IMG/VR virus record: IMGVR_UViG_2541047965_000006
Direction: 5' to 3' (one strand)
DNA from: a virus
Lineage: Duplodnaviria; Heunggongvirae; Uroviricota; Caudoviricetes
DNA: 14,693 bases
Within the stretch, counting starts at the first letter, position 1. The number at the start of each line of letters is the position of its first letter. Below are positions 12,001-14,693 of this stretch, in pieces. The position numbers are program-made.

Positions 12001-14693
12001 TTTTATAACCTCAATACGGGCACCAGAAATGGGCTGAAAAACTGCGCAAAAAAGTGCGCAAAAAACTGCGCAAATCGATCACAGAACCGAACACACAGAC
12101 CAGCAGGGCAAAGTCAGATATGACGCGGCTTTCAGGGGAAAAGACCACCGGAAAACTGCGCATTTTTTCCCAAAACGAAACGCAACAGCCGCGCAAAACG
12201 AAACCGATACGTGATGAGCGAAGAAGTGCGCAAAATTTCATTGCCAGAGTTAAGGATGAACCTGAAGGAGAAACCTACGAAATTTTCGTAGGTCAAAAAA
12301 ACGGCGCAGAAATAGATATTATAACAATGACCTACAAACAAGCCCTGCAAGTCATTGATTAAAATCAATTATCGCGAATCGCGAGAATTAGGTTTTGGCT
12401 ATCGCCCGTGCGGAGTAATCCTTGCGGGACGTGACATTGTCATCAAAACAGTGACACACAGGAGGGCCGATGAACGGGCGTTCACCAACAGGGAGCAACG
12501 CCAGAACGCGACCCCGTACCAGTGGAAGAAGCCGGAACGATTGCGGCGGTAACTTGCTGATATTCCCGATAACGCAAAATTGCGTTGGCCTCACCTACTC
12601 GCTCAGCAAAACCCCTTCTAAAGGTATTTTGTGGATAATCAATAAGATGCGTTGACTTGCTGCATTGCAAAAAGTTAAGCAGGAAGGCACGGCCTGTAAG
12701 ATGGGATGCTGTGTGATGATTCAGCCCACCAGCAACTATAACGATTCCCGTTACAGTTGATGTGCTTTTTTGCTGGTAAGGCGTAACCCGTTGATTGTTC
12801 CAGAATCCCCCATTGGGGGAAAAGCTGGCTACATCCCTCACTTCTGAGGACTGTTAACCAGCAGGCTGAAATATACTCACAAATTACGAAATTTTCGTAA
12901 ATTTAACTTTCATCCAGTACATCCCCGAATTACGGGTATGTAACCACAGCCATTACGAGGTGTTGTTGATGCGTGATATTCAGCAAGTGCTGGAACGCTG
13001 GGGAGCATGGGCGGCAAATAATCGTGAGGATGTGACCTGGTCATCGATTGCAGCCGGATTCAAGGGACTTATTCCATCAAAGGTAACCTCCCGTCCACAG
13101 TGCAGTGATGATGACGCGATGGTGATATGCGGGTGTATAGCCCGTCTTTACCGGAACAACCGCGATTTGCATGATTTGCTGGTTGATTACTACGTGCTGG
13201 GCATGACGTTTATGACACTGGCACGAAAGCATGGATGCTCAGATGGTTATATCGGGAAAAGGTTACAGAAGGCTGAGGGGGTTGTTGAAGGCATGTTGAT
13301 GATGCTGGATGTGAAGCTGGAGATGGATCGGTATGTTGAGCGGGAAGCGCTGATTTCGTAACGCACAGACAAAAAAAACCGCAGTCGGACCCTGCGGTGG
13401 AGAATAACGTCACAATCAGGTGTATGAAGAACAAGAAAAAACGTATTGCTCACAATTATGCCACGAGACAAAGTGCAGTGCACCCTGAACAGTGATAATC
13501 ACTACACAGACCAGCAGGGCACATGTGAATCATCATTACGGTGATCATGCCTCCCCCATCCCGAAACAGGGGACAGGGTTACGAAATTTTCGTAACCCCT
13601 CCACGGTTGCCCTTTAAGTGCAGGCGTATTTGCATAACGTCGTTAACCAGTCACCCACTGATCACGCTCAAACATACGCAGAAACGGGGCTAAATCGCAT
13701 TCTGGCGCAATATTTGTTGTAGGGGCTGGCATTCCACCGGAAAACGACTACAGGCTTACAGGCAGCTTAAAATTCGACAGGCGAATAACAGGGCGGGATC
13801 TGGAGGCCTGCACAAAAAGAGCAGGTTACTACCCGAAAAGTGTAGTGCCATATCGGGGCTAAAAAAAACCGCAGTGCGATAACACTACGGTATATGCCAC
13901 CAAAGAAACACAACAAGAGATCAGCAATGAGTAGTACCTGTAAGCCTTCGGGGTAATTGTAACACATGAGCAATCTTTTACTGGAAACGGTTTTTCACTG
14001 GACGCGATGCCGATATTGCAAATCAGCACAGAAAGGGGATGCCTGATACAATACCCTCACCCGATAAAATCCCACCGATAAACTCATCTGCCACGAGCAG
14101 AAAGAGCGAACGAACCCGATACGCAGTAATGCTTGTCGGGTTCAGCTTTTTAAGGCGGCTGTAGATGTCGTGCTCATCCACCAGCTTCATAGCGGATAAC
14201 CGGAAAAATTCCGGCTCATGGTTGTACATTTCTTCAGCAAATCATTTTAGCTATACGTTTGGTTATACGATTTCAAAATTCAATTAATCGATTTCTTTAA
14301 AATCATGTAGTTACACGCTTAATTAAACTCCTCTCGTGGACCAAAAATCCCAAGAAAACCAACCTATTGCGGTTGGTTTTTTTATATCTGCATTTAATTC
14401 GATAAACAGACCGCGACACATCACGGCCTGTTTATTTTCTGTTATCAGAACGTCCAGACCACACCCGCCTGAGTTGTGCTGCTTTCTTCACGGGAGAAAC
14501 GGCTGTCGATACCAAGCGTTAGCCCCGTCAATGTTTGCTCAAAGCCAGCGCCTGCATCAGTGGTCACGTTGTTGCGGCTGTTAATTGCCGAACTCCACAT
14601 CGCCGTATCGTAATTAACGCCTTTTACGCTACCAAGACGCCCACGCACGGTGTCCAGTTCTGCATCAAATACCAGCGGTTGTGCTGCCGCCAT

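Follow-up and report, generated by a model that had tools for sequence, protein, structure and literature searches.

The delta protein of the satellite P4 trans-activates the late promoters of its helper phage P2, and the Staphylococcus aureus pathogenicity island (SaPI) proteins PtiA and PtiM inhibit the late activator LtrC of phage 80 by binding to it. Phage genes for antiterminators of the Q21 family (Q21, Q933W/VT2-Sakai and QuuD) are followed by the late promoter PR', a Q-binding element, a pause element, the terminator tR' and the late operon. Helper-embedded phage-inducible chromosomal islands (PICIs) lie inside a late gene of the helper and are transcribed in cis by its Q-modified polymerase (PMC10111431). 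The DNA analysed here, the 14,693-nucleotide IMG/VR virus record IMGVR_UViG_2541047965_000006 (the window), holds a satellite island that carries a Q gene of its own. This gene is the last of the satellite, and the parts that accompany phage Q genes are missing. Comparison with related islands and prophages suggests, with a probability of about one half, that the island Q acts in trans on the PR' of a helper prophage and switches on its late genes.

By sequence, the window Q is a member of the Q21 family, with a family match far above chance. Like the phage proteins, it covers the Pfam family PF06530 (Phage_antitermQ) over its full length (residues 1-118 of 118, E=3.8e-52). It also matches PHROG 79, 'anti-termination protein Q-like' (E=7.7e-52), and the solved Q21 protein over residues 8-85 (PDB 6jnx/6p18 chains, E=3e-9). 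Amino-acid identity is 88-89% to the Q of Shiga toxin (Stx) 2a phages (933W/VT2-Sakai) and to the Qs of other islands, 84% to QuuD of DLP12 and 33% to Q21; the best database match stands at 88-89%. The 14-residue C-terminal insertion of Q933W is absent. The original prediction of an intact homologue with a good ribosome-binding site is borne out, and the GAGGTG ahead of the start is kept in 7/7 aligned islands; the GTG at 12960 was ruled out as the start since homologues begin with MRDIQ. Its label 'Q21/82-type' holds as far as the Q21 family is concerned, in the QuuD/Q933W subgroup, and fails for the Q82 type. The idea of checking zinc-binding residues does not apply to this family: the only zinc mentioned in the paper on the Q21 structure is that of the zinc-binding domain of the RNA polymerase beta' subunit.

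In the Q21 structure, the N-terminal part forms a torus at the RNA exit channel, and the DNA-binding motif is an HT[loop]H in a sigma-R4-like fold. In the alignment, Asn17 and Ser41 of the window Q stand at the positions of the Q21 torus residues Ser29 and Thr54. An AlphaFold2 model of the window Q, built from 35 close homologues, is poor (pLDDT 53, pTM 0.38); its predicted helices 65-87 and 92-112, around a four-residue turn, would be compatible with a helix-turn-helix (HTH)-like motif. The conserved Cys-Ser-Asp (CSD) turn is followed by a hypervariable pair, residues 93-94, which reads TC, TH, GT, GH, GY, SL, CW and others across 120 otherwise conserved homologues. Alignment of the binding region, a check proposed at the outset, returned a 15-residue stretch identical to QuuD. 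Residue 93 appears to be the determinant of DNA specificity, as its covariation with the target site suggests.

The candidate target site comes from 44 prophage loci (among L003, L007, L010, L012, L014 and L016-L055) whose Q homologues are 64-89% identical and which span ten genera: Escherichia, Shigella, Salmonella, Citrobacter, Pantoea, Trabulsiella, Proteus, Providencia, Morganella and Xenorhabdus. A 12-bp palindrome, TTACG(AT/TA)CGTAA, lies at the -35/spacer of the late promoter in 44/44 loci, and the PR' consensus reads aaaaacT-TTACGWWCGTAA-AAA-n5-6-TATtgT-GATAAGAGTG. It mostly stands no more than 60 nt from the Q stop, and otherwise beyond an inserted moron; a holin or lysozyme gene lies downstream of Q. 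In Stx phages, PR' transcripts have been mapped to start 258 nt ahead of the end of tR' (PMC7547250), which puts the promoter right at the Q stop, where it reads TTTACG-ATCGTAAAAATCTGCA-TATCAT. In the phage 21 record, the annotated PR'21 Q-binding element occupies the promoter spacer at the position that matches the prophage palindrome; transcription starts 7 nt beyond the -10, and a pause element and the terminator come directly behind. From these observations, Qs of the QuuD/Q933W subgroup would appear to bind an element built around TTACG(AT/TA)CGTAA; its centre is presumably read by residue 93, with which it covaries.

Among non-redundant loci, glycine at residue 93 accompanies a TA centre in 17 cases and threonine an AT centre in 16, with one exception (33/34 fit). 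Fisher's exact test on an earlier tally of 41 loci (22 Gly-TA, 19 Thr-AT), taken before L055 was included and with phylogeny ignored, gave p ~4e-12. Residue and centre switch together in near-isogenic promoters in four backgrounds: E. coli (L003 vs L010), Xenorhabdus (L036/38/39 vs L034/54, and L050 vs L053) and Providencia (L041 vs L045). Simple linkage of the two is unlikely because the intervening Q tails are highly diverse. The candidate recognition code is thus Gly for a TA centre and Thr for an AT centre in TTACGWWCGTAA. No clear covariation with residues 94 and 100 emerged for the variable hexamer that precedes the PR' -10, and the searchable literature yielded no mention of the palindrome sequences or of the one-residue rule. 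With Gly93 and a binding region identical to that of QuuD, the window Q would be predicted to target a TA-centred PR' (TTACGTACGTAA); such sites occur in DLP12 and in several E. coli and Shigella prophages.

The island itself holds no comparable site. Neither the window nor any of seven related islands (L001, L002, L005, L070 and L112-L114), which together make up the eight islands compared here, contains TTACG(AT/TA)CGTAA, even with one mismatch allowed. A position weight matrix from five phage PR' regions gave a best score of 9.5 in the window, against 64 in the phage PR' source and a shuffled maximum of 8.0 +/- 3.3. BLAST, short words included, found no similarity between the window and the PR'-tR' region downstream of phage Q. 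The locus lacks the parts that define a Q cassette, namely PR', the Q-binding element, tR' and the late operon. The earlier statement that no late operon lies behind Q is confirmed: late genes are absent from the non-coding tail that leads to the island edge, as are PR' and the Q-binding element, there and anywhere else in the island. The tail measures about 860 bp rather than the '~900 bp' first given, and the terminators said to face the opposite way are present. In pairwise alignments with three related islands, each with 39-49 gap positions, substitutions in the tail follow no codon periodicity, whereas the Q block in the same comparison has the third-position bias of a coding sequence (49-52 third- vs 11-16 second-position mismatches).

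One rival explanation has Q acting in cis. Q would load at the palindrome TACGAAATTTTCGTA or at the promoter at 9946 and read through the island's terminators (10206-10264), expressing the tail fibre and Q. The island genes are indeed co-oriented, and the strong terminator ahead of the tail-fibre gene, which the original prediction placed at 10207-10266 and proposed as a read-through target, is real. The 9946 promoter nevertheless carries neither a Q-binding element nor a -10-like pause element. Its sequence, TTGCTC-AATTATCGCGATTCGC-TATAAT, is identical in 7/8 islands and has one mismatch in L001 (positions L001 12142-, L002 12399-, L005 6919-, L070 5455-, L112 4322-), with flanks about 77% identical. 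Since the promoter and the palindromes stay constant across the Q classes G, S and T, they do not track the specificity residue, and the promoter was rejected as a Q-dependent PR' analogue. Behind the promoter come a structured leader, in which GGGCAACTGRAGCCC.CTGTACAG repeats occur, and then the strong terminator; this 9946-10264 unit, which has no Rfam match, may be a non-coding RNA or an attenuator of the cargo genes.

The palindrome TACGAAATTTTCGTA ends in TACG/CGTA, as the phage element does, and its copy in the Q leader stands at the same place in 5/7 islands with diverging flanks. Every island has 2-4 copies of it in the surroundings of Q, in the form of the 15-bp sequence TACGAAA(A/T)TTTCGTA, and it is present in L115, a Salmonella locus, too. 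G-rich and C-rich flanks often lengthen the hairpin, and non-coding copies persist while their flanks decay. Its half-sites, however, lie 5 bp further apart than those of the phage sites, no copy is placed within the spacer of a promoter that has a sigma-dependent pause element downstream, and the SL-class islands have no leader copy. The 12276 copy, in the open reading frame (ORF) 12054-12362, encodes YEIFV in an anti-repressor fragment (N-terminal domain phrog_1726), and at 22 IMG/VR loci (range L059-L110) the same bases encode YEIFV in the anti-repressor N-terminal domain. TACGAAATTTTCGTA was set aside as the island's Q-binding element because of its 5-bp spacing difference and its constancy across the G, S and T classes. 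Q-mediated read-through of the island's own terminators is therefore unlikely, and the cis explanation as a whole quite improbable. Several related hairpins (such as GTACATCCCCGAATTACGGGTATGTAC) also follow one another in the Q leader (12800-12960); they are conserved across islands, including the SL class, and may serve translational or transcriptional control of Q.

Among the eight islands, which share the order PerC, variable cargo, Q, about 1 kb and island end, Q is intact and terminal in 8/8, at no fewer than four insertion sites (>=4). Pairwise ratios of nonsynonymous to synonymous substitution (dN/dS) of Q are 0.06-0.16 at dS 0.09-1.04 (four islands and one phage). Nin, RusA and lysis genes, which stand beside Q in prophages, are missing beside Q in the islands. 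Island Q is maintained by selection and is not a decaying fragment, and two concerns raised with the original prediction, frequent disruption in related islands and origin as a decaying lambdoid fragment, find no support here. The same data bear on the explanation that Q is a functionless remnant of recombination with a lambdoid prophage. The mosaic relation of the Q genes to phage Qs and the degenerate repeats and gene fragments around Q would fit a remnant. It is contradicted by a dN/dS that stays low at dS up to 1.0, by the conserved ribosome-binding site and position, and by the want of other flanking lambdoid genes, which leave this explanation barely credible.

The mosaicism extends to the specificity-bearing part of the protein. 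Island Qs have a characteristic length of 130 residues and the tail ERDSVTA (EREALIS in the window), and their binding-region classes are GH, GT, SL, GY and TC, of which GH, GT, GY and TC also occur in phage Qs. The L070 Q (7227-7619) has a binding region identical to that of Q933W; in a sliding window, its nucleotide identity to the VT2-Sakai Q is 96-100% over nt 120-330, which include this region, and 71-87% before it. By the same measure, the Q of L005 (O157:H7 F6667) is 98-100% identical to a phage Q over nt 30-120, the L001 and L002 Qs are 96-100% identical over nt 120-195, and for the window Q, quuD is the nearest match (84-91%) only in the neighbourhood of the codons for the binding region. 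These mosaics indicate that islands and lambdoid phages repeatedly exchange Q pieces, the specificity-bearing part among them.

Absence of a cis target, strong selection and a phage-like DNA-reading part together make trans action on a helper PR' the best fit to the comparative data, and it is on this basis that we infer it, in line with the original prediction. The island would express Q, and a Q of this subgroup would load on RNA polymerase only at a palindrome-bearing late promoter. It would bind the PR' of a helper lambdoid prophage (933W-like, DLP12-like or others) and ride with the polymerase through tR', turning on the lysis and virion genes of the helper, which the satellite would need and has none of itself. 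In lysogens of lambdoid and Stx phages, PR' fires constitutively and its transcription ends at tR' (PMC7547250). Because such a promoter is stopped only at tR', Q alone should suffice for expression of the late operon.

Several points weigh against this. The association between site and residue 93 is a correlation between linked loci, and the AlphaFold2 model is too poor to put residue 93 on a DNA-contacting surface. The single exception to the rule, L055, is an N-terminally truncated Q with a Leu-to-Pro change in the adjacent helix. The TACGAAATTTTCGTA copies, with ends like Q half-sites, could be an unrecognised cis target. A helper makes its own Q at ordinary induction, so the gain from a second Q is unclear. 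Finally, a co-resident cognate helper is presumed for the window island, and the activity of an island-borne Q is a prediction. Gene integrity, selection, absence of cis sites, site-residue covariation and mosaicism were computed here; DNA binding, antitermination and the beneficiary belong to the interpretation. The sequence fits several payoffs alike: the pirating of a repressed or defective prophage, earlier helper late expression, or mistimed lysis to the detriment of the helper.

The last of these payoffs leads to a second rival, in which Q serves interference or defence, either by firing the late operon of an infecting or resident lambdoid phage prematurely, so that the cell lyses too soon (abortive infection), or by occupying the helper site unproductively and thereby blocking the late genes of the helper. 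It shares the molecular evidence for trans action, since the only apparent target is in trans, and satellites commonly tamper with helper late transcription; the island tails ERDSVTA and EREALIS are also unlike phage tails. Those tails say little, however, as phage Q tails are themselves hypervariable, and the N-terminal two-thirds of the protein, which forms the torus in Q21, is as conserved as in phage Qs, which argues against a crippled blocker. Help and harm to the helper look alike at the sequence level. Interference is considered unlikely, though it is not to be dismissed as lightly as the remnant.

The distribution of the island family brings in pathogens. Of the 5,426 complete genomes of E. 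coli, 117 contain an island-specific module located downstream of Q, and many of these 117 belong to Shiga toxin-producing E. coli (STEC) or O157:H7. The L070-type island Q, with the exact 933W binding region, occurs at 99-100% identity in at least 23 complete genomes of E. coli, many of which are labelled STEC; two O157:H7 strains, 6535 and M1300706002, have it at 98.4%. The same yicC-dinD site is occupied in other O157:H7 strains (F6667) by an island whose Q is of class GH. These counts would also suit a third rival, a regulator that serves the host or pathogen by controlling prophage cargo behind PR', such as Shiga toxin or effectors, with no role in satellite transfer. PICIs often carry virulence regulators, for example PerC/RgdR (PMC6092414, PMC11773190). 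Activation of PR', however, also triggers lysis, which is costly to the host, and the GH-class Q of the O157:H7 F6667 island is a predicted mismatch to the AT-centred Stx2a PR', so this role appears very unlikely.

If island Q works in trans, it would give satellites a route to control helper late transcription. Such a satellite could exploit uninduced prophages, including the cryptic DLP12, which has a lysis cassette behind a matching PR'. In STEC, where the island family is common and some members have the exact binding region of the Stx2a-phage Q, it could raise the expression of Shiga toxin and lysis genes or uncouple it from SOS. A broader and more tentative proposal is that PICI-type satellites of E. 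coli and Salmonella keep a helper-matched Q by recombination and use it to fire the PR' of a repressed or defective prophage without SOS. The comparison itself provides two testable results for the QuuD/Q933W subgroup: a candidate Q-binding element and a rule by which a single residue sets specificity.

Table 1. Features of the window, with positions counted from its first nucleotide
Feature	Position	Strand	Evidence or remark
Integrase, truncated by the window edge	1-1083	+	
AlpA-like HTH protein (AlpA/HTH_17)	1559-1816	+	Weak match, E=4e-4
Rha	1956-2654	+	
isrK RNA	4256-4332		Rfam, above gathering score
C4 antisense RNA	4357-4444		Rfam, above gathering score
DUF4222	5130-5420	+	
DUF927 primase-helicase	5417-7546	+	
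SSB	8731-9177	+	
ProQ/FinO	9178-9663	+	
PerC	9623-9925	+	
Cargo promoter TTGCTC-N16-TATAAT, after perC	9946-9973	+	Context
Strong terminator ahead of the tail-fibre gene	10206-10264	+	-31.1 kcal/mol, z -4.7, U6
Chimeric tail-fibre gene	10347-11999	+	Family matches, alignment
Leader copy of palindrome TACGAAATTTTCGTA, ~70 nt ahead of the Q ATG	12885-12899		Other copies at 12276-12290 and 13580-13594
Shine-Dalgarno GAGG	12957-12960	+	8 nt 5' of the Q ATG; read from the sequence
Q antiterminator gene, Q21 family, QuuD/Q933W subgroup	12969-13361	+	ATG start, 130 residues, intact ORF
Gly93-Tyr94 codons, hypervariable pair after the CSD turn	13245-13250	+	Alignment, covariation
Non-coding tail, Q stop to island end, ~860 bp	13362-14222		Substitution pattern, similarity searches
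Intrinsic terminator	13378-13398	-	Hairpin -12.1 kcal/mol, U8; ends 17 nt from the Q stop
Promoter-like block, -35 TTGCCT-like, -10 GATTAT	13484-13521	-	Almost invariant in six islands of three Q classes
Second intrinsic terminator	13868-13891	-	-14.8 kcal/mol, z -4.6, U8

The gene layout is that of a Gram-negative PICI satellite, with an integrase, an AlpA-type regulator, a primase and all recognisable genes co-oriented on the plus strand (Table 1). The left end of the island and attL lie outside the window. The stretch 4256-4444 with isrK and C4 corresponds to a P1/P4-type immunity RNA region. The ORFs 3039-3395 and 3611-4687 have no family support and are probably not genes, and the minus-strand ORFs 12482-12841 and 14023-14229 were judged spurious for want of a family match and of conservation. 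No capsid, lysis, terS or rpp genes occur in the window, and the chimeric tail-fibre gene is its sole virion-related gene. Over residues 1-371, the encoded protein shares 79% identity with the tail fibre found in Stx phages of the 933W/VT2-Sakai type; its C-terminus is a lambda J receptor-binding domain (PF12421, NF049904). The chimera looks like a fibre that would change the host range of a hijacked helper tail, and is the second gene, beside Q, that points to a lambdoid helper of the 933W kind. Three direct repeats TGCGCAAAAAA(G/C) with 12-bp spacing lie just 3' of the tail-fibre gene (12043-12075), and L115, whose Q gene stands beside glgS/gdhA, has GGTACGCAAA repeats at a comparable position (~3450-3700); both sets may be iterons or regulator-binding sites.

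In the tail, the hairpin directly 3' of the Q stop has no U tail on the plus strand, and the nearer minus-strand terminator is kept in six islands. The promoter-like block takes the form TTGCCT-N16-CATTAT/GATTAT and is kept even where the intervening island sequence differs. Its upstream half (18 nt) is repeated at 12093-12110, beside terminator-like hairpins at 12042-12072, so that the same arrangement of block and hairpin is also found 3' of the tail-fibre gene. Block and terminator together (13378-13521) suggest a 110-150-nt RNA ending 17 nt from the Q stop; if the block is a promoter, it probably drives this short RNA convergently with Q. A ProQ/FinO RNA chaperone (9178-9663) is encoded on the same island. 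At the right edge, the sequence is similar from 14222 onwards to another satellite that occupies this chromosomal site, so the island must end there; a yejO-like autotransporter gene adjoins this end on the narP side. That other satellite (L004, E. coli E08, 1-6000) is capsid-forming and encodes a major capsid protein, a head decoration protein and a small terminase. Close to the right end of the island, 70 bp (14082-14152) share 84% identity with a portion of the rlfB/rapB gene in phages P1 and P7.

The island shares its layout with the Gram-negative PICIs EcCICFT073, EcCIEDL933, EcCIMP1 and EcCIRM13514: an integrase, an AlpA-like HTH protein, Rha or an anti-repressor, an Icd-like/C4 RNA region, DUF927, SSB, ProQ/FinO and PerC, all co-oriented. 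Its relatives at yicC-dinD correspond to the published PICI candidate EcCIRM13514, where PICI status rests on bioinformatic listing. The string 'antitermin' occurs zero times in PMC6092414 and its supplements, in PMC10085698 and in PMC11773190, including the table with the yicC-dinD relative, and literature searches returned no relevant report of Q in satellites or PICIs. Helper-embedded PICIs are likewise coupled to the Q-dependent late transcription of a lambdoid helper, whereas the window island lies elsewhere in the chromosome and carries Q itself.

The SaPI Pti proteins also place helper late transcription under satellite control, although in sequence and mechanism they are unrelated to Q. 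P4 delta is closer in function, since it too is a satellite regulator that switches on the late genes of a resident helper in trans, as proposed for the island Q. The two differ in kind: delta is an Ogr-type zinc-finger transcription activator, unrelated to the Q antiterminator, and P4 has delta-responsive late promoters of its own, whereas the island shows no cis target. By this analogy, delta is the functionally closest precedent for the proposed island Q. If the scheme is true, the satellite Q would be a lambdoid counterpart of P4 delta that works by antitermination and, in STEC, possibly reaches Shiga toxin as well.

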